This document shows, piece by piece, positions 21,229-48,318 of a DNA stretch of 64,000 nt. Within the stretch, counting starts at the first letter, position 1. Each line of letters opens with the position of its first letter. Both the position numbers and the translations under genes were made by a program. This DNA is from Patescibacteria group bacterium (lineage in GTDB: Bacteria > Patescibacteriota > Microgenomatia > CAYGWK01): assembly GCA_049322615.1 (NCBI GenBank), contig JBMORX010000005.1, forward strand, positions 395 to 64,394, in the 5' to 3' direction. A model generated the notes under the pieces. It was not told where the DNA came from and searched no databases. It saw only the letters and a program-made list of their open reading frames with translations.

Positions 21229-22293
21229 ATGCTTCTTAAGCAACTGAGACTTTCTGATTTTCGAAACTATTCTCAAAAAGAATTTAGTTTTTCGGAGGGG
21301 ACAACTTTAATCGTTGGTCCCAACACTTCGGGGAAGACCAATCTTTTAGAAGGAATTTATTTACTAGCCACTGGTAAATCTTTTCGGGCCGGACTGGAAA
21401 GTGAAATGATTGCCTATGACCAAGATTTATCAAGAGTTAAAGGTAGGATTTTAAACAAAGGAAGGACTGATTTGGAAATAATTTTAACCAGAGGCGAGGT
21501 TTTGGGCGAGAAGGTGGCTAAGAAAAAATACCAGGTTAATGGGATTTCCAAGCGAGCGGTGGATTTTGTGGGAAAATTGCGAGCCGTCTATTTTGGGCCA
21601 GAAGATTTGGATTTGGTCACTAACTCGCCATCGCTTCGCCGAAAATATCTGGATTCGGTTTTATCCCAGGTGGACAGAGAATATAGTCGCTCGGCTCTTT
21701 CTTATGAGAAAGGATTACGCCAGAGAAACAGGCTTCTGGAGCGGATAAGAGATGAAGGTGCTTCTCGCTCTCAACTTTTATTTTGGAACCAACTTTTGAT
21801 TAAAAACGGAGAATATATTACCAGGAAAAGGGAGGAGTTTATTGAGTTTATCAACAGCGTTCAGTATTCAGTGTTCAGCTTTAAGCTGGAATATGACAAA
21901 AGCATCATATCTCCGGCTCGACTTGAGGATTATGCTGAAGAAGAGGTGGCGGCGGGGGTAACTTTAGTCGGTCCTCATCGGGACGATTTTACCTTCACAC
22001 ACCCGGTGTGTGATAGGTTGACACATCGGGATCTTTCAGCCTATGGCTCAAGGGGAGAACAGAGACTTTCAATTTTATGGTTAAAACTAGCTGAACTTGA
22101 ATTCATAAGCGAAAAAGTTGGTGAGCGACCAATTCTTCTTTTAGATGATATTTTTTCCGAACTTGACAAAAAACACCGCAAACTGGTTTTAGAGATCATT
22201 CCCTCCCAACAAACAATAATTACGACCACCGATTTAGATTTGGTGGAAAAAGAATACCAAAAACAAAAAGAGGTGGTAAAATTAGGTCAATGA
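21229..22293 (+). CDS. recF: DNA replication and repair protein RecF
   Basis: Walker A GPNTSGKTNLLE; contains in-frame copy of the 17-bp palindrome (THPVCDRLTHRD). Confidence 0.85.
   Translation: MLLKQLRLSDFRNYSQKEFSFSEGTTLIVGPNTSGKTNLLEGIYLLATGKSFRAGLESEMIAYDQDLSRVKGRILNKGRTDLEIILTRGEVLGEKVAKKKYQVNGISKRAVDFVGKLRAVYFGPEDLDLVTNSPSLRRKYLDSVLSQVDREYSRSALSYEKGLRQRNRLLERIRDEGASRSQLLFWNQLLIKNGEYITRKREEFIEFINSVQYSVFSFKLEYDKSIISPARLEDYAEEEVAAGVTLVGPHRDDFTFTHPVCDRLTHRDLSAYGSRGEQRLSILWLKLAELEFISEKVGERPILLLDDIFSELDKKHRKLVLEIIPSQQTIITTTDLDLVEKEYQKQKEVVKLGQ
21996..22012. repeat. J-family 17-bp palindrome cacacacccggtgtgtg (in frame inside recF)
   Basis: 8+1+8 perfect palindrome; near-copies at 23678, 23759, 48303. 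Confidence 0.6.
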
Positions 22294-23126
22294 GAGAATT
22301 TAAAGAAGAAGAAGTTAAAAAACTTTCCAAGCCCCATGAGAATTCTTCTAAAGAGGATAACGGTCAGGTGACAATCATTGGCGGCTCAAGCCTTTTTCAT
22401 GGAGCGCCGATTTTGGCTTTAAAAACTGCTTCAAGAGTGGTGGATATGGTTTTTTTCGCCTCACCTGAAGCATCGGTTGGCAAGGTGGCAGAAAGAATAA
22501 AAAGCAAACTTTCTTCTTTTATTTGGGTTCCTTGGGATCACCTTGCGGAATACTTAGAGAAATCAGATGCCATCCTTATTGGTCCAGGCTTTATGCGTTA
22601 CCACAAAGACACAAACAATCGCTGTGATCTAGCTTGTCGGGAGACACGATCCATCACCGAAAAATTTTTAAAAGTCTGGCCCAAGAAGCAATGGGTGATT
22701 GATGCGGGTTCTTTGCAAACGATAGATCCTCTCCGGATTCCCCAAAATGCCATTTTAACTCCTAATCGTAAAGAATTTGCCCGTCTTTTTGGTTTGAGAA
22801 TGAATCAGGAAAACTTAAGAGTTATGGCCCAAAAATATCATTGTCTTATTGTGGGAAAGGGCGTGGAAACAATTGTTGCTTCCTCCCGCGAGTCAGTTTT
22901 GGTGAAAGGGGGAAATGCTGGGTTGACCAAAGGGGGGACGGGTGATGTTTTGGCCGGGTTAACGGTGGCTTTGGCTGCCAAAAATCCGCCATTTTTGGCT
23001 GCTTGTGCTTCTTCCTGGATTGTTAAAAAAGCGGCTGATGAATTATATAATAAGGTAGGTTTTGCCTATAATGCCGACGATTTAGCCGAAAAAGTACCCG
23101 AAGTTTTGAAGAAATATTTTTGTTAG
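22290..23126 (+). CDS. NAD(P)H-hydrate dehydratase (YjeF C-terminal/Nnr2 family)
   Basis: GGSSLFHGAPILALKTASRVVDMV...GKGVETIVAS...GGNAGLTKGGTGDVLAG. Confidence 0.75.
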   Translation: MREFKEEEVKKLSKPHENSSKEDNGQVTIIGGSSLFHGAPILALKTASRVVDMVFFASPEASVGKVAERIKSKLSSFIWVPWDHLAEYLEKSDAILIGPGFMRYHKDTNNRCDLACRETRSITEKFLKVWPKKQWVIDAGSLQTIDPLRIPQNAILTPNRKEFARLFGLRMNQENLRVMAQKYHCLIVGKGVETIVASSRESVLVKGGNAGLTKGGTGDVLAGLTVALAAKNPPFLAACASSWIVKKAADELYNKVGFAYNADDLAEKVPEVLKKYFC

Positions 23127-23173
23127 TTCCCCAGGTGTGAGTAGGAAAACACCCCTGGGGTGTAAACCTAAAC

Positions 23174-23665
23174 ATGGGTGATTTAACCGAGCAAAAACTT
23201 GAACAGGGTGCAATCTTGCAAGATGAGCACGACAAGCCGGATATTTTTGCAAGACTCCCGAAAATAAAATTCAATTTTGATGAGGAAGGCAGATTTACGG
23301 GTTACGACACCCCGGGTAAAAATCCTCAAAGGGGACTTACATCTTCAAATTTAGGACCAGTTTTGTGGAATAGTGAGCCCCACAGGAAAGCCTTTCAAGC
23401 ATACGATGCCGTTATGAGGTGCCCGAAAGTCTACGCTGCTACTCATGGGTTTGGGTACTGGAGTGATAAAGATGCTCCAAATGAGTTTGCTCCAATCCAA
23501 GAACGAGCCAGGGCGACAGTAGGAGGGGAGATCACCAAAGAGTGCGAGAGGTTTGTTCAAGATATAATTGACTGGACAAACTCTCACCCTAAGCTTTTTG
23601 AAGATTATTTACGAGAAGTGGAAGAAGAGGGTGAATTTGTAATTGTAAAGGTCAAGAAGATTTGA
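23174..23665 (+). CDS. hypothetical protein
   Basis: 163-aa ORF. Confidence 0.3.
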   Translation: MGDLTEQKLEQGAILQDEHDKPDIFARLPKIKFNFDEEGRFTGYDTPGKNPQRGLTSSNLGPVLWNSEPHRKAFQAYDAVMRCPKVYAATHGFGYWSDKDAPNEFAPIQERARATVGGEITKECERFVQDIIDWTNSHPKLFEDYLREVEEEGEFVIVKVKKI

Positions 23666-23677
23666 GTATCGAGATAT

Positions 23678-23775
23678 CACGCACCCGGTGTGTGAATGTA
23701 TATACATAGGAGAATATTTAAGATGAAGTTTGCTGAAATACCCGAGGTGTCAAGCCATCACACACCTGGTGTGTG
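23678..23775. promoter_or_regulatory. two copies of the 17-bp palindrome (cacgcacccggtgtgtg; cacacacctggtgtgtg) 65 bp apart, upstream of the flavoprotein gene
   Basis: Operator-like dyad symmetry; positions 23678-23694 and 23759-23775. Confidence 0.4.
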
Positions 23776-23816
23776 CAAAGTGCGCAAACTAGTGTACAAT
23801 CTAGTATGAAGATTAC

Positions 23817-24368
23817 ATGAAGATTGTTGGAATTTGTGGTAGCCCGAGAAAAAATAGCAACTCCACCAGAATGGTGGAAGAGGTTCTTAGAGGCGCAAAA
23901 GACACGGGGGCTCAAATAGAGATTATTAAGCTTGGAGATTTAAAAATTGAATTTTGTGATGGATGTTTGAGTTGTGATCAGACTGGGAAGTGCCATTTTA
24001 ATGATGGGATGAATGAGATTTGCGAGAGAATGGCGAGAGCGGACGGATTTGTCTTCGGCTCACCGACGAGATTCGATAATGTCTCGGGAATGATGAAAAA
24101 CTTTATGGACAGAACCAATCCACTCTGCAAAGACGCTCGCCTAAAAGGGAAAACAACGGGATTGGTAACAGTGGGGTATTGGGAAGAAAATGTTTCTAGA
24201 GAAAGAGCAATTAACTGCTTTAAAAATTTCTGTGAAGCCCATGAGATGGAAGTTATTGGAGATTTGGAGGCGTATGAGAAGAGTGGTAGGCCAGGAGAAA
24301 TTGCCAAAAAGAAAGACGTCCTAGAAGAATGCTATAAACTAGGACAGAGGTTGGCAGGAGTTGTTTGA
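23817..24368 (+). CDS. NADPH-dependent FMN reductase-fold flavoprotein (iron-sulfur flavoprotein-like)
   Basis: MKIVGICGSPRKNSNS N-terminus, CDGCLSCDQTGKC cysteine cluster. Confidence 0.7.
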   Translation: MKIVGICGSPRKNSNSTRMVEEVLRGAKDTGAQIEIIKLGDLKIEFCDGCLSCDQTGKCHFNDGMNEICERMARADGFVFGSPTRFDNVSGMMKNFMDRTNPLCKDARLKGKTTGLVTVGYWEENVSRERAINCFKNFCEAHEMEVIGDLEAYEKSGRPGEIAKKKDVLEECYKLGQRLAGVV

Positions 24369-24475
24369 GTTCACTTCATTACTACACCGTAATGAAGTTT
24401 TGGTACCATTTATGCTGGAGCATTATTTGTACCATTTATTTTTTCCGTAGATGCAGAAGCAGAATTGGTAAGTTT

Positions 24476-24898
24476 TTAACTCTTTCTGTTTTTCCAATCG
24501 ATGCCAAAACTCCATTTATATCGCTCAAAGGTAATTTTTGCTTTATCAAAAAATATGTCTTGACCAAGAATGCAAGGGTATTCTTGAGTTAAAGATCCGC
24601 CGAAATAAACAGGAAGGATTAAATCTCGACCAGCAATTTCTATGGTGATTTCTTTAGGAAAACAATCCATTTTGCTTTGATTAAATCCCGTAATGGAAAC
24701 AGGTTTAATCTTCTTAAAATTAATTCCCAGATAAAGCGCTATTTTAAATGTAGCAAAAGAATAGTCGGCGCCTGAATCAATTAGAGTCAGAATTGGATAT
24801 GTCTCTTTAGATTTGTATTTATACCGCACTGGAACTAACGGACGTGGAGTAGCGGAAGGGTCTCCGGGCAAAACAAAATAGGGAAACTCCATTTTCAA
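24476..24898 (-). CDS. retropepsin-like aspartic protease
   Basis: LIDSGAD active-site motif; homologous to 63302-63712. Confidence 0.6.
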   Translation of the reverse strand: MKMEFPYFVLPGDPSATPRPLVPVRYKYKSKETYPILTLIDSGADYSFATFKIALYLGINFKKIKPVSITGFNQSKMDCFPKEITIEIAGRDLILPVYFGGSLTQEYPCILGQDIFFDKAKITFERYKWSFGIDWKNRKS

Positions 24899-25107
24899 GT
24901 AATAAAACCGCGATAATTTTGTGCAGCAGAAATAAGAACTATTTCCGGGCTACCTAGTCTTTTTAATTTTAGATCAATTTCTTTTAAAGACTTTCCCCAG
25001 GTTACCACTCTCTTGTAATCTACAGAGAGAGCCACCCACCCAGAGGAATAATCTTTTAATAGCTTAACAAGAGAAACTGGTTTTTCCATCTGGAGAGATT
25101 TTAGCAT
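24895..25107 (-). CDS. small protein partner of retropepsin-like protease
   Basis: 70 aa; stop overlaps protease start (ATGA); similar to 63700-63942 (KR.V..GK.L.(D/E)I..L..K). Confidence 0.4.
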   Translation of the reverse strand: MLKSLQMEKPVSLVKLLKDYSSGWVALSVDYKRVVTWGKSLKEIDLKLKRLGSPEIVLISAAQNYRGFIT

Positions 25108-25262
25108 ATTAAAAGGGGCAGTGCAATTCCTAATTTTCTTCTTCTTGTTATTTTCCGCAGAATTTGCGATAATTAAATAAGTAATTAGTAAATAGTAATT
25201 TGTAATTTGGACTAGACGTTTTTCTCCTAATTACTAATTACCAATTACGAATTACTAGATTA

Positions 25263-25409
25263 ATGTACGTTCCTGAATTTACAATCACTAACGAAATCTT
25301 GAAAAACATTGGCATTATTGAAGCCTGTCGGCCCAGCCAAATTTTACCTCTCGCCTTAGTAGATTTCTACTGCGGCTCGAGGAGCAATTTTAGGCGGGTT
25401 TGGCAGTAA
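25263..25409 (+). CDS. upstream ORF: N-terminal mimic of Fic (MYVPEFTITNEILKNIGIIEA) running through an E-family palindromic element; stops 4 nt before fic start
   Basis: See findings; first 21 codons encode near-identical peptide to fic N-terminus with mostly synonymous differences. Confidence 0.5.
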   Translation: MYVPEFTITNEILKNIGIIEACRPSQILPLALVDFYCGSRSNFRRVWQ

Positions 25410-25413
25410 AATC

Positions 25414-26547
25414 GTGTATCAACCAAAATTTACAATTACCAACGATATTCTTAAGAATATAGGCATCGTGGAAGCTGCCAAAGAAGTGATTGATAACGCT
25501 CCTTTGGTCCCGGCTTGGGAGAAGAAGTTTCGCGAAGAGGCGATGGTGCGGACGGTTCACTACGGCACTCATCTTGAGGGAAATGAGCTTTCTTTTTCTG
25601 AAGCAGAAAAAGTTTTGGAAGGACAAAAAATTGTTGCCAAAGACAGAGATATTCAAGAAGTTATAAATTATCGTAAGGTGATTAAGTATCTAGATGAATT
25701 GGTTCCGAATGAAGAACCTGCAACACCCGCCTCCGCCAAGGCTACGGCGGGCAGGCAGAAAGCACAGAAGGAAGCAGAGAGCATAGAGAAACCATATACT
25801 GAAGCGATGCTTAAAAAAATCCACTTTTTAACTTGTTATCGGATTATTCCCAAAGACCAGGCAGGTAAATTCCGCCAAACCCAGGTGGTTTTAAGAAATT
25901 CTCAAACTGGAGAAGTTGCTTTCAAACCACCACCTTCCGCTCAAGTTCCTGCTCTTGTTTCCGATTTCCTAGGCTGGTTGAATTCGGAAAGTGGAAAAAG
26001 CATTCATCCAGTGATGCGGGCGGGGATTACTCATTACGCTTTGGCGGCAATTCATCCTTTTGTTGAGGGAAATGGTCGGACCGCCCGGGCTTTTGCCACC
26101 TTGATTTTGTTCTCCGAAGGCTACGACATTAAAAAATTTTTCTCTTTAGAGGAATATTTTGACAAAGATGCTCCTTCTTATTATTCTGCCCTGATGCAAG
26201 TTTCAAACCAGAGCGAAAATCTTTCTCAAAGAGACCTAACGCCCTGGATTGAATATTTCGCCAAAGCCCTTGCCTTAGAGTTGACAAGAATAAAAGAGAG
26301 AGTGAGAAAACTTTCTTTAGACTTAAAAATTAAGGGAAGGCTGGGGCGGCAGATTGCTTTATCAGAACGACAAATGAAACTAGTTGAATACCTGGAGGAA
26401 TATAAAGAAATTACCGTTCCCCAGGCTCGCCAGATTCTTCAAATGGTTTCCGATGATACCATCCTTCGCGACTTGAAAGACCTGGTTAAAAAGAAGATAA
26501 TCAAAAAAGAGGGGAAAACTAAGGCAGCAAAATACGTTATGAAATAG
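25414..26547 (+). CDS. Fic family protein (AMPylation-type)
   Basis: HPFVEGNGRTARAF Fic motif; C-terminal winged helix; in-frame C-family insert at 25727-25790. Confidence 0.8.
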   Translation: MYQPKFTITNDILKNIGIVEAAKEVIDNAPLVPAWEKKFREEAMVRTVHYGTHLEGNELSFSEAEKVLEGQKIVAKDRDIQEVINYRKVIKYLDELVPNEEPATPASAKATAGRQKAQKEAESIEKPYTEAMLKKIHFLTCYRIIPKDQAGKFRQTQVVLRNSQTGEVAFKPPPSAQVPALVSDFLGWLNSESGKSIHPVMRAGITHYALAAIHPFVEGNGRTARAFATLILFSEGYDIKKFFSLEEYFDKDAPSYYSALMQVSNQSENLSQRDLTPWIEYFAKALALELTRIKERVRKLSLDLKIKGRLGRQIALSERQMKLVEYLEEYKEITVPQARQILQMVSDDTILRDLKDLVKKKIIKKEGKTKAAKYVMK

Positions 26548-26586
26548 TAAATATTAAATAGCAAATAGCAAAAATACATAGCAAAA

Positions 26587-26967
26587 ATGCAAAAAGGCCA
26601 AGAAGAGATTAAGAAAAAATTTAAAGCAAGACTTTATGCGTTTATTCTGAAACTAATCGAGTTTATCGATGATTTACCAAAAAAAGACAGAGTTTGTCTT
26701 ATTCTTGGGGATCAACTTTTAAGAAGCGGGACAAGCATTCTTGGTAATTGGATTGAAGGACAAGCTTCGAGTTCAAAAAAAGATTTTTTGGTTTTCCTAG
26801 AGCGATGTCTTAAATCTACTAATGAGAGTAAAATCTGGTTGGCTATCTTGCGAGATTCTGGAAGAGCGGAAAGAAAAAGAGCAGGCTGGTTTTTGAAAGA
26901 ATTAGAGGAATTCGCTAACATCTTTGCTTCGAGCATCTTAACAATCAAGGGTAAAAAATCTATTTGA
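26587..26967 (+). CDS. four-helix-bundle protein (rRNA IVS protein family)
   Basis: QLLRSGTSILGNWIEGQA... Confidence 0.65.
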   Translation: MQKGQEEIKKKFKARLYAFILKLIEFIDDLPKKDRVCLILGDQLLRSGTSILGNWIEGQASSSKKDFLVFLERCLKSTNESKIWLAILRDSGRAERKRAGWFLKELEEFANIFASSILTIKGKKSI

Positions 26968-26997
26968 AATTTACTATGTATATTTACTATTTACATT

Positions 26998-27216
26998 TTG
27001 ATATTTAAAATTCCCAAGATGAGTCCAACTGACCCACAGTTTTTATACATGATTTTGGTTCTGCCTACTCTTTTTGGGTTAACCTTGATAGGGGAGGGAT
27101 TAAATAAGATTTTGAAGAATGAAACCCAAGGTTGGCTTTCAATTGTTTTTGGAGCTTTATTTATCGGGGTGGTGATTTTCGCTTTCTTTTTCTTTTCTTC
27201 TGCCCTAAAGCCATAA
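26998..27216 (+). CDS. small membrane protein
   Basis: Two predicted TM segments. Confidence 0.3.
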   Translation: MIFKIPKMSPTDPQFLYMILVLPTLFGLTLIGEGLNKILKNETQGWLSIVFGALFIGVVIFAFFFFSSALKP

Positions 27217-27222
27217 AAATAT

Positions 27223-29040
27223 ATGAAATTTTCCGAACTTTCAAAGTTTCTTCAGGAACTTGAAGAGACATCCTCAAGAAATAGGATGATTGAGATTCTC
27301 GCCGAACTCTTCAAGGTTTCGAGTAAAGAGGAGATTGATAAAATCTGCTATCTAACTTTGGGGCAACTGGCGCCTTTATATGCTCAAGTTGAATTTAATT
27401 TGGCGGAAAAAATGATTGTGCGAGCTCTATCTTTGGGATACAATGTTAATCCAGAAAGTGTTGTTAAACAATATAAGAAGGTTGGTGATTTGGGAGACGT
27501 TGCCGAAGAGCTCGCAAAATCAAAAATCGCGCCGCCGGCAAAGCCTTCTCGCCGTCGCGAAGCCTCGCTATGGCGGAGCACGGTGGCGACGCACGGCAAA
27601 ACTCAAAAATCAAAATTGAGCGTTGTGGACGTCTACGAAAGATTAATGGATATTGCCACGGAAACAGGAGAGGGTAGCCAAGAAAGAAAACTTGGCGGAA
27701 TGGCAAAATTACTTTCAGAACTTGAGCCGCTTTCTGCCAAATATGTCGTCCGAATCCCCTTGGGAAGATTAAGACTTGGTTTTTCTGATTTAACAATTTT
27801 GGATGCCCTATCTTGGATGATCGCTGGCGATAAATCAAAAAGAGGGGAGATTGAGGAGGCTTTTAATGTTAGAGCCGATATTGGTCAAATTGCTAAATTG
27901 ATAAAAGAAAAGGGCCTGAAGGCCTTGGTGGGGATTAAGGTTTCTTTGGGAACGCCCATTATGCCGGCTTTATGCCAGAGGCTGCCAACGGCCGAGGAGA
28001 TGATTAAAAAAATGGTCCTTCGACAAGCTCAGGATAAAGTGGCGGTTGAGCCAAAATATGATGGCACTCGCCTTGGGGTTCATTTTTCCAGGCTACACCC
28101 CAGGGGTGTAAACGTCAATATTTTTACCAGAAATTTAGAAAATGTAGCTCAAATGTTTCCTGATATTACCGAAGCACTCCCCAAGGAGGTAAAAGCCAGA
28201 GAGGCAATTTTGGATGGAGAGGCAATAGGTTTTGATCCAAAAACCGGCAAGTTTTTGCCTTTCCAGGAAACAATTAAGAGAAAAAGGAAATATGAAGTCA
28301 AAGAGAAAGCCAAAGAAATTCCCTTAAAATATTTTGCCTTTGATATTTTATTTAAAGACGGAAAGGACTTGTTGGCTGTGCCTTTTGATCAAAGGCGACA
28401 GATTTTAGAAAAGACTCTTTCTCCGGCTAATCAAACCATTGTTCTTTCGCCGCAAATCGTGACTGATAATGCCGAAACTCTCCGCCGGTTCCATGATGAA
28501 CAAGTTAAAAACGGGCTTGAGGGAGCGGTGGTTAAAAAATGGCAAGCGCCCTATGATCCGGGCAGAAGAGGCTATACTTGGGTGAAATTTAAAGAAGAGG
28601 AGACAAAAAAGGGTGGAGGGTTGGCTGATACTTTGGATTGCGTGGTTATGGGATATTATAAAGGTAGGGGAAAAAGAGCCGGATTTGGAATTGGGGCTTT
28701 CTTGGTAGGAGTAAGGAGGGGAGAGGAATTTTTAACCATCTCAAAAATTGGCACGGGCCTAACAGATGAGCAATGGCGAGAGATGAGGGTGAGAAGTGAG
28801 AAGTGGGAAGTGGGAAGTCAGCCAAAGCAATACTTGGTTGATAAGAATCTGGTGCCTGATGTTTGGTGCCAGCCAGCGATTGTGGTTGAGATTCAGGCGG
28901 ATAATATTACTAAGTCGCCAATTCATACCGCCAAATATGCCCTGCGTTTTCCCCGGCTAGTCCGTTTTCGCGAGGACAAATCTCCACAAGAAGCAACCAC
29001 TCTTGCCGAAGCAGAAAAACTCTACCGGCTTCAAAAATAA
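27223..29040 (+). CDS. ATP-dependent DNA ligase
   Basis: Adenylation motif EPKYDGTRLGVHF (KxDG), OB-fold C-terminus; in-frame K-family/GC-palindrome insert 27520-27610. Confidence 0.8.
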   Translation: MKFSELSKFLQELEETSSRNRMIEILAELFKVSSKEEIDKICYLTLGQLAPLYAQVEFNLAEKMIVRALSLGYNVNPESVVKQYKKVGDLGDVAEELAKSKIAPPAKPSRRREASLWRSTVATHGKTQKSKLSVVDVYERLMDIATETGEGSQERKLGGMAKLLSELEPLSAKYVVRIPLGRLRLGFSDLTILDALSWMIAGDKSKRGEIEEAFNVRADIGQIAKLIKEKGLKALVGIKVSLGTPIMPALCQRLPTAEEMIKKMVLRQAQDKVAVEPKYDGTRLGVHFSRLHPRGVNVNIFTRNLENVAQMFPDITEALPKEVKAREAILDGEAIGFDPKTGKFLPFQETIKRKRKYEVKEKAKEIPLKYFAFDILFKDGKDLLAVPFDQRRQILEKTLSPANQTIVLSPQIVTDNAETLRRFHDEQVKNGLEGAVVKKWQAPYDPGRRGYTWVKFKEEETKKGGGLADTLDCVVMGYYKGRGKRAGFGIGAFLVGVRRGEEFLTISKIGTGLTDEQWREMRVRSEKWEVGSQPKQYLVDKNLVPDVWCQPAIVVEIQADNITKSPIHTAKYALRFPRLVRFREDKSPQEATTLAEAEKLYRLQK

Positions 29041-29332
29041 TTTTGCCGATTTCGTGTTAAAATGGGTTTAAAATATGGGAAAAGAAGGACAGATAATAGG
29101 AGAAGAATTTGGAGCTGGTTTTGTGGCTAGAAAAGCTAATGAGACAGCGATGCGTATTATACCAGTCGTCTATGAATTACAGACGGCATATCTTCATAGG
29201 GGAGGGTTAAAAGCAGTCGGGATATTGGTAGGGCTTTTGGTATGGTGGGAGATGCAAAAAAGGTTGGGTTTGCCTATTTCGCCAGGATTGTTTAAGAAAT
29301 AGGCAAACCCTAGAATGTGCTAAAATGAATTT

Positions 29333-32876: not shown

Positions 32877-32880
32877 TCCT

Positions 32881-35745: not shown

Positions 35746-35860
35746 CACTGAAAGCACAGAAATTTCAGTGCTTTCTGTTAAATTCAGTGCTCTTTCGGTG
35801 ATTAGGGGGTGCATTCGGAAACAGAACTTCCTACTCCTGAAGGCACAGAGAAAGGGGGTG
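35746..35860 (+). promoter_or_regulatory. A-family leader element copy 2 (ends gaaagggggtg 10 nt before ATG 35871)
   Basis: See 468-580. Confidence 0.5.
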
Positions 35861-36197: not shown

Positions 36198-36324
36198 ATT
36201 GACCTAATTAACCTAATTTCTAATTGACCTAAAATTTTGGTCATTTGGAAATTGGGATTTGATTAGAATAATTAGAAATTAGTAATTAGAAATTTTTTTT
36301 GGCTCCTGTTATACTTCTTGTTAG

Positions 36325-36951: not shown

Positions 36952-36959
36952 TTAAATCC

Positions 36960-37628: not shown

Positions 37629-37643
37629 TGGTATAATGAAAGA

Positions 37644-38389: not shown

Positions 38390-38420
38390 GCAAATAAGCA
38401 AATAAGCAAATGTCAAATAA

Positions 38421-38828: not shown

Positions 38829-39001
38829 CATTTGATTATTTGGAATTTGTTATTGATTTGTAATATTTGAAATTTGTAGTATTTGCTTATTTGATTATTG
38901 AATGAATGGAAAAATTTTGGGAATTTCATTTTCGGAAAGAATGGTTGTTACACCTCGGTGATTACACCTCGGAGGTGTAAGGAGGAAGGTGTAAGGCTAG
39001 A

Positions 39002-39364
39002 ATGAATAGCACAAAAAAAACAAAAGGACTTGAACCCTTAGGAAATATTCTCGCCCAATTTAATTCCCTAAAAGATAAATATATCTCCCGGGAATTTCAA
39101 AAATACGGTTATGATTTGGCAGTTGAGTTAGGGGATGTAGAACATAAGGCTTTATATATCAAGCTTGCTAAAGAACTTCCTCGAGAAATCCTGGAGCAGG
39201 CGAGAAATTTTGTCAAAGACGCGGGCAGAGTTAAAAGCAAAGCCAGACTTTTTATGTGGCGTGTAAAGTTTCTCAAAGAGAAACAACGCGCCAACCCCGT
39301 GTCCGCCAAAGGCGGATTTACGGGGTGGAAGCTGGAACAACTGCGAAAAGGGAGTCAAAAATGA
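39002..39364 (+). CDS. hypothetical protein
   Basis: 120-aa ORF, stop overlaps next start. Confidence 0.3.
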   Translation: MNSTKKTKGLEPLGNILAQFNSLKDKYISREFQKYGYDLAVELGDVEHKALYIKLAKELPREILEQARNFVKDAGRVKSKARLFMWRVKFLKEKQRANPVSAKGGFTGWKLEQLRKGSQK

Positions 39365-40329
39365 GTCTTCAGGGAAACTGGATTGATCTTTTAATCCTAA
39401 TCGTTCTTTTATTTTTTGTTCTTGAAGGTTTAGAGCAAGGGTTTTGGAGGCTTGCGGCTGAATTCTTTTCCTTTTTAGGCTCGCTTCTTTTGGCGATTCG
39501 CTTTTATTCTCTGGTGGCAAAATTTCTCGTTTTGAATTTTTCTTTATCTTACGGATTTGCCAATGCCTTAGGGTTTTTATTCACCGCAATCTTTGCGGAG
39601 ACGGCTTTAGCCGCCTTGGCTTTTTGGTTCTTTGGCAAGATTCCCCAAAAATGGCTTTCGGTTTGGTGGAACAAAATTTTAGGGGTAGTTCCGGCGATTT
39701 TAAATGGTCTGGTTTTAATTGCCTTCTTTTTAACTTTAATTATCGCTTTACCCATTACTCCCTTTTTAAAAAAAGACATCACTTCCTCAAGAATTGGGGG
39801 ATATTTAGTTGGCAAGACTTTCGGGATTGAACACAAATTTAATGAGATCTTCGGGGGCGCAGTTGAAGAAGCCTTGACCTTCTTGACGGTTAAGCCTGAA
39901 AGTCGCGAGCGAATTGACCTTCGTTTCACCACCAAAGAATTTTCCGTTGATCAGCTCTCTGAGACAAAAATGTTTGCCTTGGTAAATGAGGAAAGAGAGA
40001 GAAGAGGGATTAAAAAGTTGGAATGGGATCCAAGACTGGTGGTGGTCGCCCGGGAGCATGCAAAAGACATGTTTTTAAGGGGCTATTTTTCTCATTATTC
40101 CCCTGAAGGAGAAAATGTGAGTGATCGGCTTAAGGATAACCATATAGATTTTGCGGTTGTTGGGGAAAATTTAGCTCTGGCGCCAACGGTTTTTATTGCC
40201 CATCAGGGATTGATGGCTTCTTCGGGTCACCGAGCAAATATTCTTTCCCCTGAATTTTCCAAAGTGGGAATCGGGGTGATCGACGGCGGAATCTACGGAA
40301 AAATGTTTACCCAAGTTTTTACAGACTGA
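39361..40329 (+). CDS. CvpA-family membrane protein fused to CAP/SCP (PR-1-like) domain
   Basis: N-terminal CvpA TM region; C-terminal CAP signature HYSPEGENV...GHRANIL. Confidence 0.65.
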   Translation: MSLQGNWIDLLILIVLLFFVLEGLEQGFWRLAAEFFSFLGSLLLAIRFYSLVAKFLVLNFSLSYGFANALGFLFTAIFAETALAALAFWFFGKIPQKWLSVWWNKILGVVPAILNGLVLIAFFLTLIIALPITPFLKKDITSSRIGGYLVGKTFGIEHKFNEIFGGAVEEALTFLTVKPESRERIDLRFTTKEFSVDQLSETKMFALVNEERERRGIKKLEWDPRLVVVAREHAKDMFLRGYFSHYSPEGENVSDRLKDNHIDFAVVGENLALAPTVFIAHQGLMASSGHRANILSPEFSKVGIGVIDGGIYGKMFTQVFTD

Positions 40330-40331
40330 AA

Positions 40332-40928
40332 ATGAGATTAAAAAGGGATTTTTTTGCAAAAGAGACAATTTGGGTAGCCAAGAATTTACTGGGAAAATAT
40401 CTAGTAAGAAGGTTAAGGGGAAAGAAACAATTGGTTGGGAAAATTGTCGAGACCGAGGCTTATATTGGACCTGATGATAAAGCCTCCCACGCCGCTTTTA
40501 GAAAAACAAAAAGATGCGCCCCAATGTATGATAAGCCAGGGACGGCCTATGTTTATTTTATTTACGGGATGTATTGGATGCTCAATATTGTTACCGAAGA
40601 GAAGGGAAAACCGTGCGCGGTCCTGGTTCGGGCAATCGAACCAATAGAAAATGAAAAAATAAAAATGAAAAATGACATATTAAAATTTAAAAAGTTAGGA
40701 AGCGGGCCTGGGCTGTTGTGTAAGTGGCTGGCGATAGACGGTTCTTTTAATGGCGAGGATTTGGTTAAAAGCCAAAGACTTTGGCTAGAGGAGAAGGGTG
40801 ACAGGGTCCGACCCTGTCAGATTGTGGCGACTAAAAGAATTGGAGTAGAATACGCTGGTCCTTGGAAAGATAAGCCCTGGAGATTTTATCTAAAGAAAAA
40901 TCCATATGTCTCAAGGAAAGGTGTTTGA
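40332..40928 (+). CDS. DNA-3-methyladenine glycosylase (Mpg/AAG family)
   Basis: GKIVETEAYIGPDDKASHA...; in-frame K-family and H-family inserts. Confidence 0.75.
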   Translation: MRLKRDFFAKETIWVAKNLLGKYLVRRLRGKKQLVGKIVETEAYIGPDDKASHAAFRKTKRCAPMYDKPGTAYVYFIYGMYWMLNIVTEEKGKPCAVLVRAIEPIENEKIKMKNDILKFKKLGSGPGLLCKWLAIDGSFNGEDLVKSQRLWLEEKGDRVRPCQIVATKRIGVEYAGPWKDKPWRFYLKKNPYVSRKGV

Positions 40929-41247
40929 AAAAATTTATGAGGCAGTTAAAGGAATTCCTAAAGGGAAAGTGGCGACCTATGGGCAGATTGTAAATCAAAT
41001 TAAAAATGAAAAATTAAAAATGAAAAATGACAAAGAAAAATTTAAAATTACTCCGCGAGTAGTAGGATGGGTACTCCATCAAAACCCTGATTCTGAAAAT
41101 ATTCCTTGCCATCGGGTGGTGGATAGAAGTGGAAGATTGGCGTCTGGGTTTGCTTTCGGCGGAGCAAAAGAGCAGAAGAGAAAACTCCTGAAAGAAGGAG
41201 TAAAATTTAAAGATAGCATACATGTAGACCTTAATAAATACCAATAA
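40906..41247 (+). CDS. methylated-DNA--protein-cysteine methyltransferase DNA-binding/active-site domain (MGMT family)
   Basis: Active-site IPCHRVV; in-frame K-family insert NEKLKMKNDKEKFKIT nearly identical to that in mpg. Confidence 0.65.
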   Translation: MSQGKVFEKIYEAVKGIPKGKVATYGQIVNQIKNEKLKMKNDKEKFKITPRVVGWVLHQNPDSENIPCHRVVDRSGRLASGFAFGGAKEQKRKLLKEGVKFKDSIHVDLNKYQ

Positions 41248-41270
41248 ATACCAATAAATACCAATGACCA

Positions 41271-41651
41271 ATGATCAATAAGAATAAGAAAAAATACGAT
41301 ATTCATGAGAGAATTTTTAGATTTATAATCCGAGTAATAAACCTCACAAAGCAGTTACCGAAAAACCAGCAAAACTTAGTTATAATCAGTCAAATCCTGG
41401 ATTCGGTAACCTCTATGGGAGCAAATGATCAGGAAGCGGATGGAGCCTTAACTCGTAGAGACTTCATTCATTGTTATACTGTTGTTAGAAAAGAGGGAAA
41501 AGAAACTAACTTTTGGCTAAGATTAATTCAAGCAATAAATCCCGGATTTGCATCAAGAATGGTGGATTTGATTAAAGAAGGCGAAGAAATTGTCGCCATT
41601 GTGAGCCAGATTATCGCTAACGCAAGAAAAAAGTCTCTAAAGAAAAAATAA
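41271..41651 (+). CDS. four-helix-bundle protein (rRNA IVS protein family)
   Basis: See 38421. Confidence 0.75.
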   Translation: MINKNKKKYDIHERIFRFIIRVINLTKQLPKNQQNLVIISQILDSVTSMGANDQEADGALTRRDFIHCYTVVRKEGKETNFWLRLIQAINPGFASRMVDLIKEGEEIVAIVSQIIANARKKSLKKK

Positions 41652-41694
41652 TTGAGAATTGGTACTTATTTGAAATTTGTAGTATTGGTAATTA

Positions 41695-42462
41695 TTGATC
41701 ATGTCTAAAGCCTATATTGGCACTTCTGGCTTTTCTTACCCTCACTGGGGCGATGGGATTTTTTATCCCAAAGGTTTACCTCAAAGAAAATGGTTTGAAT
41801 ATTATTGCCAGCATTTCTCAACGGTTGAGCTTAATGTTTCTTTTTATCGCCTGCCCAAAAAAGAGGCTTTTTCTTCCTGGCGAAAGCGGGCGGGGAAGGA
41901 TTTTGTTTTTTCGATTAAGGGTAGCCGATTTGTTACTCATGTTAAAAAATTAAAAGATTGTGAGGAGGCGGTCAAAACTTTTTTTGACGCCGCTAGCCCC
42001 TTAAGAGGTTCAACCTCACAGGAGATTGAACCTCCCCAGGAAAAGAACGTTGTTCTTTGGCAGTTACCTCCAGGATTGGCCTTCGACGAGCTCAGGCTAA
42101 AAAAGTTTTTGGCTATTCTTCCTCGGACGTGGCGGCATGCTTTTGAGTTCAGAAACGAGACCTGGCTTTGCTCCGAGGTATTTTCTTTATTACGGCACAG
42201 TAATAAAGTCGCGGTGTTCCAGGACTATCCTGACTGGCCGATGACGCGCGAAGCGACGGCGGATTTTGTCTATATTAGATTCCATGGCAACCGCGTGCTT
42301 TACTCTTCTGAATACACAGAAGAAGAACTAGAAACTTGGGCTTTGGATATTAAGAAATGGTTAAAACAAGGAAAAGATGTGTACGCTTATTTTAATAATG
42401 ATGCTCTAGGTTATGCGATTGAGAATGCGAAAACATTAAAGAAATTAGTAATTGGTAATTAG
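41695..42462 (+). CDS. DUF72 (UPF0759) family protein
   Basis: N-terminal YIGTSGFSYPHW...FYP signature. Confidence 0.7.
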   Translation: MIMSKAYIGTSGFSYPHWGDGIFYPKGLPQRKWFEYYCQHFSTVELNVSFYRLPKKEAFSSWRKRAGKDFVFSIKGSRFVTHVKKLKDCEEAVKTFFDAASPLRGSTSQEIEPPQEKNVVLWQLPPGLAFDELRLKKFLAILPRTWRHAFEFRNETWLCSEVFSLLRHSNKVAVFQDYPDWPMTREATADFVYIRFHGNRVLYSSEYTEEELETWALDIKKWLKQGKDVYAYFNNDALGYAIENAKTLKKLVIGN

Positions 42463-42480
42463 TAATTTGGGGAGAGCGGT

Positions 42481-43035
42481 TTGTGGTATTATGGAATTAT
42501 GAGAAAAGAGATTTTAAGCCACTTGGTGCCGACTTTAGTCTTTTTGGTTTTTTTAACTCTTCTCCATTGGCAACTTAAGTTTTCTTTAATCTTTTTCTGG
42601 TTGGGCGCTTCCTTGGGCGCTGTTGTTTTAGATCTGGACCACCTTCTCTATACTTTTATCCAGGCTCCTCATGAATTTACTTCCCAGCGGGCAAAAAGAT
42701 TTTTTGAACAAAGAAAGTTTTGGGAAGGGATTATTCTTTTGTTTGAAACCCAAGAAGAACGGGGGAGAATGATTTTTCACTCGGTTTTGTTTCAGGTAAT
42801 TTTAGTGATTTTAACTTTTTTTGTTTTAACTTCCTCGGCCAGTCTTTTTGGGAAAGGATTGGTCCTGGGAATGCTCCTTCATAGCTTGACTGACCAGGGG
42901 TTTGAATTTGTCAAAAACGGAGAGATTGAAAACTGGTTCTGGCAATTTAGGCAAAAACCAGCCGTAAATCTTCAGGCTCTTTATTTAGCGGTAATTTTTC
43001 TTCTTTTTCTGATTTTGTCCCTTCTTTTGATTTAA
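42481..43035 (+). CDS. hypothetical membrane protein
   Basis: Multiple hydrophobic segments. Confidence 0.35.
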   Translation: MWYYGIMRKEILSHLVPTLVFLVFLTLLHWQLKFSLIFFWLGASLGAVVLDLDHLLYTFIQAPHEFTSQRAKRFFEQRKFWEGIILLFETQEERGRMIFHSVLFQVILVILTFFVLTSSASLFGKGLVLGMLLHSLTDQGFEFVKNGEIENWFWQFRQKPAVNLQALYLAVIFLLFLILSLLLI

Positions 43036-43155
43036 TCACCCCTTGACCCCAGTAGAACGCTTACCTGCTCTCGTGGTCTACGTCCACGCATCGCAGGAGC
43101 GCGTCTACGGGGTCGGCGGGGCGTTTAATCCGCCCAGGGCGGATTATTTCGCCCC

Positions 43156-43185
43156 TTGACAGACCCTCCCCCCCCAGGGTACAAT
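43156..43185 (+). promoter_or_regulatory. promoter candidate TTGACA-18-TACAAT formed at the 3' end of an E-family element, upstream of csoR
   Basis: -35 at 43156-43161 lies within the element terminal repeat ccccttgac. Confidence 0.35.
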
Positions 43186-43208
43186 AACAAAATAAGCAAA
43201 TACTACAA

Positions 43209-43517
43209 ATGTCAAATACTACCAATACACAAAAAAACAAAAAAACAAAAAAACAAAATCCCTCGGTGAATGACCGCATGAATTATCTGATTGGACACCT
43301 CAGGGCGAATTTGAAGATGGTTGAGGAGGGAAGATATTGTATTGATATTATTAGGCAAAACCAGGCCGTAATTTCCGCTTTAAAAAAAGTGAATGAATTA
43401 ATTTTGCGAAATCATCTTGATACCTGTCTTACTAGGGCCGTTAGGGGAAAAAGCGAAAAACAAAGAAAAAAAGTTTTAGAGGAAATTGTTGAAATTTTTA
43501 AAGAGGGAGAAGAGTGA
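43209..43517 (+). CDS. CsoR/RcnR-family metal-sensing transcriptional repressor
   Basis: DUF156 pattern LRANLKMVEEGRYCIDIIRQNQAVISALKKV...LRNHLDTCL; precedes copper genes. Confidence 0.7.
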   Translation: MSNTTNTQKNKKTKKQNPSVNDRMNYLIGHLRANLKMVEEGRYCIDIIRQNQAVISALKKVNELILRNHLDTCLTRAVRGKSEKQRKKVLEEIVEIFKEGEE

Positions 43518-44989
43518 AAATGATTAAGGAAAAAACTTTCAAAGTCGAAGGAATGCATTGTGCTTCTTGCGAGCTGGTGATTGAGAAAAAATTACTAACT
43601 CTTCCAGGGGTCCAGTCAGTCGAAGCCTCAGTCGGTAAAAGTCAGGTTGTGGTTGAATATGAAGGGAAACCGCCACCAAACGAAGACCTCAATAAAATGT
43701 TCCTTCAGGAAAAGTATACCTTTTTTGACCAAGAAAAAGAGGTAAACCTTGAAACTGATAATTCGTTGACAGTGACGGTTATTGTGGTTTTGCTGGTGAT
43801 TATGGTTTTTATCATTGTCCAAGGTTTTGGTTTGCCAGGGCTTATTAACGTTAACAAGAATTCATCTTTGCTGGCATTTTTCGTTTTAGGGCTAGCTGCC
43901 GGAGTCTCAAGCTGCGCTGCCTTGGTGGGAGGTTTGGTGCTTTCGCTGTCCAAACAGTGGTTTGAGCTTTATTCTAATAGGAATTCGACCATCGAGAAAC
44001 TCCAGCCGCATTTTTTATTTAATACCGGCAGGATTCTCTCCTATGCTCTTTTCGGCGCGGCTCTTGGTTTAGTTGGCAATCGCCTAGAGATTTCCTTTGT
44101 CTTTACTTCCTTTTTAGTTATTGCCGTCTCTGTCCTTATGTTTCTCCTGGGGCTTGAGATGTTGGGGATTAGATACTTTCAGAAATTCCAAATCACCATG
44201 CCCAAAGCGATTACTAGATATGTGGCTGATGGAAGAAATTTTAAAGGCAGGTATATGCCTTTTCTGGTGGGAGCAATGACTTTTTTCTTGCCTTGCGGGT
44301 TTACCCTTACCGCTTATGGATTTGCTCTTCTTTCCGGAAGCATGGCGCAAGGAGCCTTAATTATGTTGGCTTTCGTTTTGGGGACCCTGTCAGGTCTTTT
44401 AGCGATCGGTCTATCGGGCATCAAATTGGCGGAAAGTCATCGTTTCTCAACCTTCTTTCCTAAGGCTGCCGGCGCCCTGGTTTTGTTTTTTGCTCTTTAT
44501 AATCTTAACAATCAGTTTAATGTTTTGGGGATTTCCAGTTTAAGTGATTTTAAGCTTAAGACCGCTGGTTTAACTCAAATAAATGGCAATGACTTGGCTC
44601 CGATAGTCGCAGGAAAACAGATCATCAAAATGGACGCCTCAGGCTACGGTTACCAACCAAACTATTTTAAAGTTCAGACTGGGATACCTATTCGTTGGGA
44701 GATAACGGATAAAGGAACGAGCGGTTGCACCAACGCGGTTATCTCCCGAGGGTTATTTGACGGACAAATTAGTCTGACGCCTGGCCAGGTGAGTGTTAAA
44801 GAATTCGTTGCCCCAAAACCGGGTCGGTATAAATTCAGTTGTTGGATGGGGATGATTTCAGGAACTATCGAAGTCGTGGATAAAAACGGCTCGGTAAAAT
44901 CTTCAGGGAATGTCGAAGTCCCCTCCGGCGCAAGGGGGTGCGGCTGTGGTGGGAGCGGGGGCTCCAGTAGCTGCCAGACGCTGAGATGA
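43514..44989 (+). CDS. heavy-metal-associated (HMA) domain membrane protein with DsbD/CcdA-like TM core and C-terminal cupredoxin-like domain
   Basis: N-terminal MHCASCE HMA motif; TM Cys residues; Cys-rich C-terminal tail. Confidence 0.45.
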
Positions 44990-47365
44990 AAAAAGAAACC
45001 TTCTTACTTAAAGGAATGCATTGTGTTTCCTGCGCGGTGACAATTGAGAATGCTTTAAAAAAAGTACCAGGCGTTTTCTCGGCCGTGGTTAATTTTGCTG
45101 CAGAGAAGGCGACAGTAGAATTCAGCGATCAAGCTATTGAGCAATTAAGATATCAAGAATTATTAGAGAAGATTAAAAAGGCGGTAAAAAACGCAGGCTA
45201 TGAATTGATAACGGATGAGAAGGATGATCACAGAAGGCACAGAAAAAAAGATGAGGGCACAGAAAAAGAAATGGAACATCACGACCACGCGGCAATGATG
45301 AGGGAAGAAGAATTAATAGACTTGAAAAGAAAAATTGCTGTTGGCGCGGTGATCTCCGCTTTAATTCTAGCTATTACCCATCGTTGGTTACTTTTCTTAT
45401 CCACACTTTCAGACCAAACAACCTTTTTCCTTTTGTTTTTCTTAGCTACTCCGGTCCAAGTCTGGTTAGGAAAAAGTTTTTATCAAGGGACGTTTCGGGG
45501 TTTAAAAAATCTTCGGGCTAACATGGATACCCTCGTTGCTCTAGGAACAACCATCGCCTATCTTTATAGCGTTGGTCTAACTTTTATTCCTTCTTATTTT
45601 GCTATGGCAGGGGTCAAGCTTCATATTTATTATGATACCGCCGTTTTTCTTTTGACCATCATTACTTTTGGCCAGTTTTTAGAAAAAAGAGCCCGAGGCC
45701 AAGCAGGAGAAGCGATAAAGAAGTTGATGGGGTTGGCACCCAAAACCGCTCGCGTCCTTCGACAAGCTCAGGATAAATTAGTAGAGATAGATATTCCTAT
45801 CGATCAAGTTCTGGTGGGTGATATTTTAATCGTTCGTCCGGGAGAGAGAATTCCGGTTGATGGAATTGTCGTAGAGGGTGCTTCGGCGGTGGATGAATCA
45901 ATGGTTACGGGTGAAAGTATGCCAGTTGAGAAGAAAAAGGATGACCAGGTAATTGGGGCGACGATTAATAAATCTGGTTCTTTTAAGTTCAAAGCCACAA
46001 AAGTTGGTAAAGAGACGGTTTTAGCCCAAATTATCAAGCTTGTTGAGGAGGCTCAGGGTTCAAAAGCGCCAATCCAACGACTAGCGGATACAGTCTCTGC
46101 TTATTTTGTCCCCGCAGTGATTTTAATAGCGGCTTTAACCTTTTTGATTTGGTTTTTTGTCGGACCTACTCCTGCTTTAACCTTTGCCATTATTAATGCC
46201 ATTGCTGTTTTGATTATTGCTTGCCCTTGTGCCTTGGGTTTGGCGACGCCAACGGCGATTATGGTGGGGACGGGTAAAGGAGCAGAAAAAGGGATTTTGA
46301 TTAAAGATGCCACCAGCCTTGAGATTGCTCATAAGATAAAAACGATTGTTTTGGATAAAACAGGGACGTTGACCAAGGGGGAACCTGGGGTAACGGACAT
46401 AATAATATCAAATATCAAAGATCAAATATCAAAAATACAAATTAAAAATCAAAAAGATTTACTAAGAATTGCCGCCTCGGCCGAGTTGCGGAGTGAGCAT
46501 CCTTTGGGGCAGGCGGTGGTTAAGAAAGCCAGGGAGCAAGGACTGAAATTGGTTGAACCAACAAACTTCCAGGCAATTACCGGGAAAGGGGTAAAGGCGA
46601 AATTAGTAATTAGGAATTTTAAAGGGAAATCGTGTTTTGATGAAAGAATTTAAGGTGGAGATACCAAAAGCAGTGGAAGAAAGAATGAAGAGATTAGAAA
46701 ATGAAGGCAAAACAGTTATGCTCTTAGCCGTAACCCAATTACCAATTACTAATTACCAATTACTAGGCATTATTGCCGTCGCTGATACTCTTAAGGGAAA
46801 TTCGAAGGAAGCAGTCCAAGCCTTGCAAAAGATGGGGCTTGAGGTTTGGATGATAACTGGGGACAATCCCCGAACGGCTCGGGCGATCGGAAAAATGGTA
46901 GGAATTGATAAAGACCACATTATGGCGGAAGTGGCCCCTCAAGAAAAGGAGAGGAAAGTGAGAGAGCTTAAAACCCAAGGTGCCGTATCTGGTGAACCTC
47001 TAAGGTTGGTGAGTATGGTGGGTGATGGGATAAATGACGCCCCGGCTTTGGCGGCTTCAGATGTTGGGATTGCCATGGGAGCGGGGACGGATGTGGCGAT
47101 GGAGTCAGCCGGGATAACATTGATGAAATCAGATTTGCTGGATTTGGTGGCGGCGATTAGACTTTCCAAAGCAACCCTTGCGATTATCAAGCAAAATCTT
47201 TTCTGGGCTTTCTTTTATAACACGGTTTTAATTCCGGTTGCGGCTGGGGTTCTTTATCCATTTTTTGGGATTCTCTTAAATCCTATTTTTGCTTCCGGAG
47301 CAATGGCGTTTTCTTCAGTTTCCGTGGTTTTAAATTCCTTGAGACTGAGAAGAATAAGAATTTGA
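44986..47365 (+). pseudogene. copA: copper-translocating P-type ATPase CopA, split into two ORFs by a +1 frameshift in a T4 run near 46624-46637
   Basis: HMA MHCVSCA, CPC, DKTGTLT in 44986-46653; GDGINDAPAL and last TMs in 46637-47365 (TTG-started ORF); deleting one T in gtgttttgatg restores a continuous frame. Confidence 0.7.
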
Positions 47366-47408
47366 TATTAAGATATTAAGATATTAAGATATTAAGATAT
47401 TAAGAGAA
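47363..47408. repeat. G-family tandem (gatattaag x5)
   Basis: atattaagatattaagatattaagatattaagatattaagag. Confidence 0.6.
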
Positions 47409-47423
47409 GGGAGGTGAACTATT

Positions 47424-48182
47424 ATGTTTGATTTAACCGGTAAAAAGGCTTTGGTGACTGGAGCCTCGAGGGGAATTGGTCGGGGAATTGCCCTGGCTTT
47501 AGCCAGGCAGGGAGCGGATGTGGTTGTCAATTTCCGTTCAAATGGCGAGGAGGCGGAAAAGGTTGTTTCCGAAATAAAAGCCTTGGGTCGAGATAGTTTT
47601 GCGGTTCAGGCTGATATCTCCAATAAAGAGTCAGTTGGAAAAATGTTTGGGGAAGTAAAAACGAAATGGGGGAAATTGGATATTTTAGTTAACAACGCTG
47701 GGATTGTTCAGTTTGCTCCTTTTGAGGAGTTGACTGAAGAACAATGGGATGCGGTTTTAGACACGAATTTAAAAGGTCAGTTTTTATGCTCCCAGGAGGC
47801 AGTTAAATTAATGTCTCCTGGTTCAAGAATTATTAATATTGCCTCAATCGCCTCTGGCGGAGTTGGAGTTGGTTTCTCGCGAATTTCCCATTATACCGCC
47901 TCCAAAGGCGGAGTGGTCGCCTTAACCGAAAATATGGCCTTGGATTTAGCCGCAAAAGGAATCAATGTTTGCGCCATCGCTCCGGGAATAATTGAGACAG
48001 ATATGACCCGCGATATGCTTTCGGATGAGAAAGCCAAGGCCGGACTTTTAGCCAGAATTCCTAAAGGAAGAGTAGGCAAACCAGAAGACATTGGGGCGGC
48101 GGCCGCTTTTTTGGCATCCGATGAGGCAGATTATATTACGGGAACAGTAATTTACGTTGATGGAGGCTGGCTAGCCGCGTAA
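47424..48182 (+). CDS. SDR-family oxidoreductase (FabG-like)
   Basis: TGASRGIGRGIA cofactor motif; YTASKGG catalytic motif. Confidence 0.8.
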   Translation: MFDLTGKKALVTGASRGIGRGIALALARQGADVVVNFRSNGEEAEKVVSEIKALGRDSFAVQADISNKESVGKMFGEVKTKWGKLDILVNNAGIVQFAPFEELTEEQWDAVLDTNLKGQFLCSQEAVKLMSPGSRIINIASIASGGVGVGFSRISHYTASKGGVVALTENMALDLAAKGINVCAIAPGIIETDMTRDMLSDEKAKAGLLARIPKGRVGKPEDIGAAAAFLASDEADYITGTVIYVDGGWLAA

Positions 48183-48302
48183 GAACGTAACATTTGCTTT
48201 GCAAAGTGTACGTTCAACGCGGCTTATCACGTTAATCGCCAAAGGCGATTTTACGTGATGGCAGGCTAGAAGTTTTAGAAGATTCCTTAGGTGTCTACCT
48301 AG

Positions 48303-48318
48303 CACACACCGGGTGTGT
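48303..48318. promoter_or_regulatory. J-family palindrome cacacaccgggtgtgt at the 5' end of the hemerythrin-like gene
   Basis: Fourth copy of the dyad. Confidence 0.4.

Follow-up and report, generated by a model that had tools for sequence, protein, structure and literature searches.

A 17-bp palindrome from a Patescibacteria contig is very probably the core of a REP-type hairpin repeat associated with a RAYT-like transposase

A 64-kb stretch of contig JBMORX010000005.1 from a Patescibacteria (Candidate Phyla Radiation, CPR) genome, hereafter called the window, contains four copies of a 17-bp palindrome, which a preliminary description had proposed to be the operator of a redox or oxidative-stress regulon or, failing that, a repetitive extragenic palindromic (REP)-type element or other mobile palindrome. 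Our analysis supported the second proposal, on the grounds that a RAYT-like Y1 gene is bracketed by the palindrome in at least nine CPR loci and that the copy inside recF of the window is a lineage-specific insertion. The palindrome is very probably the core of a non-autonomous hairpin repeat of the REP or REP-doublet-forming-hairpin (REPIN) type, recognised and dispersed by a REP-associated tyrosine transposase (RAYT), a Y1/HUH enzyme. No evidence of a redox-regulon operator was found here, which removes a false lead. REP/RAYT-type hairpin repeats, whether selfish or domesticated, are thus present in CPR bacteria, although repeats are usually considered scarce in the tiny genomes of this group; a fairly ordinary kind of element is found in an unusual host group.

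A search of the window located CACACACCNGGTGTGTG exactly at positions 21996 and 23759 and, once mismatches were allowed, copies with one mismatch at 23678 (CACGCACC...) and 48303 (...GGTGTGTA), giving four sites where dinucleotide-preserving shuffles predicted 0.05. The four copies described earlier are therefore real, but only those at 21996 and 23759 are perfect palindromes. Their gene contexts had been assigned correctly according to Pfam (recF, FMN reductase and the hemerythrin-trxA-trxB cluster). One repeat unit lies on the plus strand and three on the minus strand. The copies at 23678 and 23759 start 81 bp apart, leaving a gap of 64 bp, and both fall within the 151-bp spacer upstream of FMN_red, with the 23759 copy ending 41 nt before the ATG of that gene; the distance from the end of the 48303 copy to the probable hemerythrin ATG (48333) is 14 nt. 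Rfam models at the gathering threshold matched only tRNAs in the window. A small open reading frame (ORF) overlapping the 23759 copy (23696/23724-23809) received no support.

Comparison of window and foreign copies revealed a longer, oriented unit with the palindrome as its core, CACACACC-N-GGTGTGTG-N7-GACAC(A/C)TCGGGAAT, in which the 7-nt spacer reads ATAGGTT, GTAGGTA or a similar variant. All four window copies carry the arm, which is decayed at 23678. Scored with a 41-nt weight matrix derived from 35 foreign copies of the repeat, three window sites reached 47-64 bits, and nothing scored in shuffled windows. In its full form the element makes a nested hairpin, ...CCCGATGTGTC-N7-CACACACC-N-GGTGTGTG-N7-GACACATCGGG...; the four copies in the window are either single-armed or decayed. 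Both arms are present in some genomes, where the element of ~60 nt folds as one long nested hairpin (-17.2 kcal/mol, z -4.2 in locus L095). Folded as single-stranded DNA (ssDNA), most copies reached z scores of -2 to -4.2, with modest energies for the single-armed copies (z -0.8 to -3.1) and -9.5 kcal/mol (z -3.1) for the copy in recF. Elsewhere the 17-mer is lengthened outward by bases that are variable yet complementary: at least one extra pair was present in 77 of 109 low-GC copies and at least three in 36 of the 109, against about 1.6% expected by our own estimate, which takes p = 0.25 per pair. Because complementarity is retained despite sequence change, these data point to a hairpin rather than to a duplex site read by a protein.

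Table 1. Repeat units of the window, the gene island that carries two of them, and foreign loci in which the palindrome brackets a RAYT-like gene (matrix scores are from the weight matrix of foreign copies)
Feature	Position or loci	Strand	Details
REP-type unit inside recF	21996..22031	+	Perfect core 21996-22012, 7-nt spacer, arm GACACATCGGGA; 64 bits
Decayed REP-type unit in the spacer upstream of FMN_red	23666..23694	-	Core 23678-23694 with 1 mismatch, degenerate arm GGTGCGTGATATCTCGATAC; arm pattern matched at 2 mismatches
REP-type unit upstream of FMN_red	23740..23775	-	Perfect core 23759-23775, arm leftward (GGTGTGTGATGGCTTGACACCTCGGG on - strand); 60 bits
REP-type unit upstream of the hemerythrin gene	48284..48319	-	Core 48303-48319 with 1 mismatch, arm leftward (GGTGTGTGCTAGGTAGACACCTAAGGAAT on - strand); 47 bits
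Variable gene island between Carb_kinase and Fic	23174..25107	.	163-aa ORF of unknown function, FMN_red, two small minus-strand ORFs; carries two copies
Loci with a RAYT-like gene bracketed by the palindrome	L004, L008, L022, L053, L093, L095, L120, L042, L029		

The partner of the repeat emerged from loci that had been picked only by the 17-mer. Several of them hold palindrome pairs ~715-750 bp apart with a gene of 222-247 aa in between, and in at least nine CPR loci (Table 1) the palindrome lies within about 0-40 nt of both gene ends; in L069 the contig begins at the gene, so that the palindrome is visible on its 3' side only. The bracketed gene was assigned to Pfam Y1_Tnp in 9 of 10 pairs tested, and the sole NCBIfam match of its product was NF047646, 'REP-associated tyrosine transposase'; in public records the gene is labelled 'transposase', 'IS200-like domain protein' or 'hypothetical'. 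Alignment with E. coli TnpArep (PDB 4er8) spans both the HUH motif (MPNHfHll vs lPeHmHci) and the tyrosine motif Y-x-x-x-NP (RYIHLNP vs dYIyINP), and residues H96, H98, Y156 and N160 were invariant in 12 RAYT-like homologues. Bertels et al. (2017, PMC5581495) give a Y1 transposase flanked by the abundant palindromic 16-mers of its genome as the core feature of RAYT genes. Two further homologues, in L106 (6800-7650) and L086 (7150-8000), are 39-47% identical to the RAYT of L008 and are bracketed by different palindromes, namely GACACCTGAAAGGTGT, and CCTACAAG(G/A)ACTCTCCTCGTAGG, the latter with a GTAG-type tag; this is the pattern that co-evolution of transposase and repeat would produce. A different arrangement occurs in L065 (6639-7392; metagenome-assembled genome (MAG) UBA10108), where two perfect palindromes bracket a 240-aa staphylococcal-nuclease-like gene, not a RAYT; the RAYT of UBA10108 sits elsewhere, in L069.

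Across genomes, the perfect 17-mer was scanned for in 185,579 species-representative genomes, which yielded at least 120 loci. The repeat is over-represented in CPR bacteria: at least 59 of the 120 loci listed are labelled Patescibacteria/CPR in their record titles, including Amesbacteria, Beckwithbacteria, Gottesmanbacteria, Curtissbacteria, Daviesbacteria and Microgenomates as well as Parcubacteria, Niyogibacteria, Azambacteria, Saccharibacteria, WWE3 and CPR2. Several MAGs gave 5-11 loci each among the matches listed, and two MAGs of the ~1-Mb class each hold at least 10 perfect copies. In the 94 low-GC loci, 88 of 117 copies (75%) were extragenic or at a gene edge, compared with 11% non-coding sequence (crude ORF calls cover 89%). 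The copies in spacers were distributed over the ++, +-, -- and -+ contexts as 27, 19, 17 and 14, with an all-spacer background of 143/67/124/71; tandem (44), convergent (19) and divergent (14) placements were thus close to the background of 267/67/71. Matches to the 17-mer in high-GC genomes (Streptomyces and others) proved to be parts of unrelated long GC-rich hairpins and were taken as coincidental. About 21 motif loci (L002, L005, L024, L047, L068 and ~16 others; GC 37-50%) are labelled 'uncultured Gammaproteobacteria/Pseudomonadales', and at least L005, L024, L047 and L068 among them carry the same armed element; either the MAGs are mislabelled or the range of the element extends beyond CPR.

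The surroundings of the window copies were then compared with those of relatives. The earlier statement that one palindrome lies in frame inside recF (21229-22293) was borne out, the copy at 21996 being read as F-T-H-P-V-C-D. Protein and DNA alignments identified it as a lineage-specific in-frame insertion of 18 nt (6 aa) relative to RecF of relatives at 84-85% identity, placed in a length-variable RecF loop directly before the conserved GSRGEQR motif; the nearest named relatives of this RecF are Microgenomates. No copy with up to 3 mismatches was present in 6-21 kb of DNA syntenic with the recF region in four relatives (L122-L125). The FMN_red gene (23817-24368, NADPH-dependent FMN reductase by Pfam) and the two copies upstream of it belong to an island of ~2 kb that is missing in relatives, where Carb_kinase is followed directly by Fic (L122) or by DUF5654 and CorA (L123, L125); the FMN_red protein was otherwise matched only in one 3.7-kb Logan contig. 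The hemerythrin-domain gene, whose most likely start is the ATG at 48333, is followed by trxA (48877-49203) and trxB (49241-50218). L126 and L128 share this SDR-hemerythrin-trxA-trxB arrangement, with hemerythrin 65-68% identical, and their motif-free SDR-hemerythrin spacers measure 61 bp and 14 bp, respectively, versus 150 bp in the window. The three hemerythrin loci L126-L128, of which L126 and L128 are syntenic, likewise hold no copy at up to 3 mismatches. Insertion polymorphism of the repeat and its association with RAYT-like genes are shown by these sequence data.

The same spacer of the window contains two further near-palindromes at 48183-48259, GAACGTAACATTTGC...GCAAAGTGTACGTTC and ATCACGTTAATCGCC-AAA-GGCGATTTTACGTGAT, neither of which occurs in the short spacers of L126 and L128 or has clear repeats elsewhere in the window. 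In its appearance the spacer resembles a series of stacked hairpin insertions, in the manner of a bacterial interspersed mosaic element (BIME). In another genome, an armed copy (L101, 7014-7045) lies in frame within the adenylation domain of a 579-aa ATP-dependent DNA ligase, which is a second intragenic case in a DNA-repair or replication gene beside recF. These in-frame insertions show that elements of this kind can remodel essential proteins.

We infer the following route for the spread of the repeat. A RAYT-like HUH enzyme, which would be encoded in the genome of the window itself, would recognise the hairpin on single-stranded DNA and disseminate it, probably as ssDNA. Solo and partial copies would then accumulate at insertion-tolerant places, which in the window would be the variable island, the expanded intergenic spacer and the permissive RecF loop. 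The catalytic mechanism and the ssDNA substrate proposed here follow E. coli TnpA-REP and the IS200/IS605 paradigm (PMC3479197, PMC6006769). The position of the window copies before redox genes is incidental.

Known REP/REPIN-RAYT systems, represented by the E. coli REPs with TnpA-REP (PDB 4ER8) and the Pseudomonas REPINs (Bertels & Rainey 2011, PMC3116915; Bertels et al. 2017, PMC5581495), likewise combine a short, over-represented, mostly extragenic palindromic repeat able to form hairpins with a Y1/HUH transposase gene that is flanked by the same repeat and encodes HUH and Y..NP motifs; in those systems, too, doublets form long hairpins and different RAYT homologues go with different palindromes. 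A REP is a short imperfect palindrome of 20-40 nt, and RAYTs typically occur once in a genome. The present elements differ in their Patescibacteria/CPR hosts, in their longer proteins (222-247 aa) and in a perfect 8-N-8 core that is common to both inverted arms. Several points weigh against assigning them to this class. The RAYT-like proteins scored only 26-60 bits on NF047646, under its cut-off of 80 bits. A conserved GTAG or CGTC tetranucleotide 5' of the hairpin foot is part of the REP definition (PMC6006769), and no such tag was seen at the hairpin foot here: the commonest flank was AT..AT (40 of ~109 copies), flanks further out vary, and the TAG-containing spacers ATAGGTT and GTAGGTA sit within the element. 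The same 17-mer core accompanies RAYTs that are only 33-48% identical to the L008 reference and is identical across Microgenomates, Parcubacteria, Saccharibacteria, WWE3 and CPR2, a persistence through very divergent lineages that contrasts with proteobacterial REPs, which are specific to a species. The 64-kb window contains no RAYT gene, tblastn with nine RAYT-like proteins returning chance matches only, and its density of copies is modest (4 in 64 kb). Finally, mobility is inferred rather than observed.

A redox operator had been the leading suggestion, with a dimeric repressor of the Rrf2, PerR or Rex kind controlling the FMN reductase gene and the hemerythrin-trxA-trxB cluster. Its appeal lies in the exact dyad symmetry and in the redox-related genes that start 14-122 nt downstream of three of the four window copies, features shared with the operators of Rex, PerR/Fur and Rrf2-family regulators, and by our own reading the 23759 copy could overlap a -35 element relative to TACAAT at 23795-23800, although a consensus scan found no promoter. 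What a regulon would leave behind is lacking: relatives do not have the motif in the regions orthologous to recF, to Carb_kinase/Fic and to SDR-hemerythrin-trxA-trxB, including the syntenic clusters of L126 and L128 with their much shorter spacers, nor do they have the FMN_red island itself. No promoter bias was detected across the 94 low-GC loci, with 14 divergent sites and 19 between convergent genes, and since an operator is expected to avoid convergent spacers, the 19 convergent copies speak against one. Nor were redox genes enriched downstream of the palindrome in the multi-genome scan: the 58 non-transposase genes with a 5' end within 250 bp of a copy represented 99 Pfam families, none with more than two members, and had no common function or redox theme. 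The only recurrent neighbour was the Y1 transposase. Unlike operators of those families, the copies carry an asymmetric arm, and one of them is an in-frame insertion in recF. No regulator candidate adjoins the window sites, the neighbouring ORFs having no DNA-binding domain except for a weak DeoR helix-turn-helix match in the Fic protein (25414-26547), and nothing relevant came from scanning the surroundings of both intergenic sites for sigma-70 promoters and terminators. The motif TTGACA in the arm was considered as a -35 box and rejected, since the copies read showed no hexamer resembling a -10 box at a suitable distance and since the arms are directed away from FMN_red and the hemerythrin gene. 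The comparative evidence already largely refutes the operator interpretation, which we regard as highly improbable.

The copies might instead be the ends and miniature derivatives of autonomous IS200/IS605-type insertion sequences (IS), resembling miniature inverted-repeat or palindrome-associated transposable elements (MITE/PATE-like), rather than REPs served by a domesticated single-copy RAYT. This would fit the Pfam assignment of the bracketed gene to the IS200-like Y1_Tnp family, its public labels 'transposase' or 'IS200-like domain protein', the recurrence of the palindrome-gene-palindrome unit in several genomes, and a Y1 HUH transposase that is predicted here to act on subterminal ssDNA hairpins. 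The bracketed proteins nevertheless matched no NCBIfam IS200/IS605 model at E<=0.01, only the RAYT model; the same palindrome occupies both ends, where such elements have distinct left and right hairpins; and no tnpB was noticed adjoining the transposase. Solo repeats also far outnumber the gene, with apparently one transposase locus per genome: among the motif loci listed, MAGs had at most one transposase locus against 9-11 repeat loci (in the 8-kb loci read, 1 of 11 in JAHJSD01, 1 of 5 in DPYI01 and 0 of 9 in MEXE01). We therefore consider an IS origin unlikely. A local role is compatible with the REP/RAYT interpretation, in that REP-derived copies could have been co-opted as RNA or DNA hairpins that act on the FMN reductase and hemerythrin-trx genes by modulating their transcription, their translation or the stability of their mRNA. 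The short distances from the 48303 and 23759 copies to the downstream ATGs (14 and 41 nt) are in keeping with this, as are the effects of proteobacterial REPs on mRNA stability and termination that are proposed in two reports (PMC3733652, PMC3479197). Against it, no copy is followed by a T-run terminator, single-armed copies form hairpins of modest energy (z -0.8 to -3.1) and orthologous sites show no conservation, so that co-option seems very unlikely.

In-frame insertion of palindromes has a known parallel outside the REP systems. Rickettsia palindromic elements (RPEs) were reportedly described by Ogata et al. in 2000 as in-frame inserts in protein-coding genes that are not destroyed by them; RPEs are about 100-150 bp long and have no known transposase partner. 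The copies in recF and in the DNA ligase of L101 resemble RPEs in this respect, whereas their sequence is unrelated and most copies of the present repeat are extragenic.

It is possible, though we hold this view only tentatively, that the REP-RAYT system is native to Patescibacteria/CPR, its 17-bp core having stayed unchanged while the partner transposases diverged to 33-48% identity (vs L008), and that it tolerates in-frame insertion into RecF and DNA ligase. If the system is native and its core conserved, this would point to long-term domestication and to a role at the level of the host within such minimal genomes, for example in genome structure or gene expression. A full-text literature search returned no paper that links RAYT/REP elements with Patescibacteria/CPR beyond one passing mention, and none with the motif. 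The unusually deep conservation of the core offers a simple sequence tag for locating such systems, and repeat and transposase make a tractable protein-ssDNA pair for work in vitro.

Other features of the window were recorded in passing. A second palindromic repeat family (GAGAGCACAGAAATTTCAG) was noted (465-506, 35747-35778 and 20344-20411); the fpg ORF (20143-21120) contains an inverted repeat related to it. With 325 aa this ORF is longer than those of relatives (282-296 aa) and has a stretched N-terminal Pfam domain, which may reflect another in-frame repeat insertion. A heavy-metal P-type ATPase (44986-47365) is split into overlapping ORFs (44986-46653 and 46637-47365), while syntenic L126 has a single gene of 841 aa; the split represents a frameshift, a pseudogene or an assembly error. 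The FtsH homologue of L123 (2173-5406) carries an intein (Intein_splicing, LAGLIDADG), and its positional counterpart in the window, an ORF of 1068 aa (13497-16703), is of similar size and may contain one too. The window also encodes a tRNA-Ile with anticodon TAT (8410-8485), an anticodon that is uncommon in bacteria.

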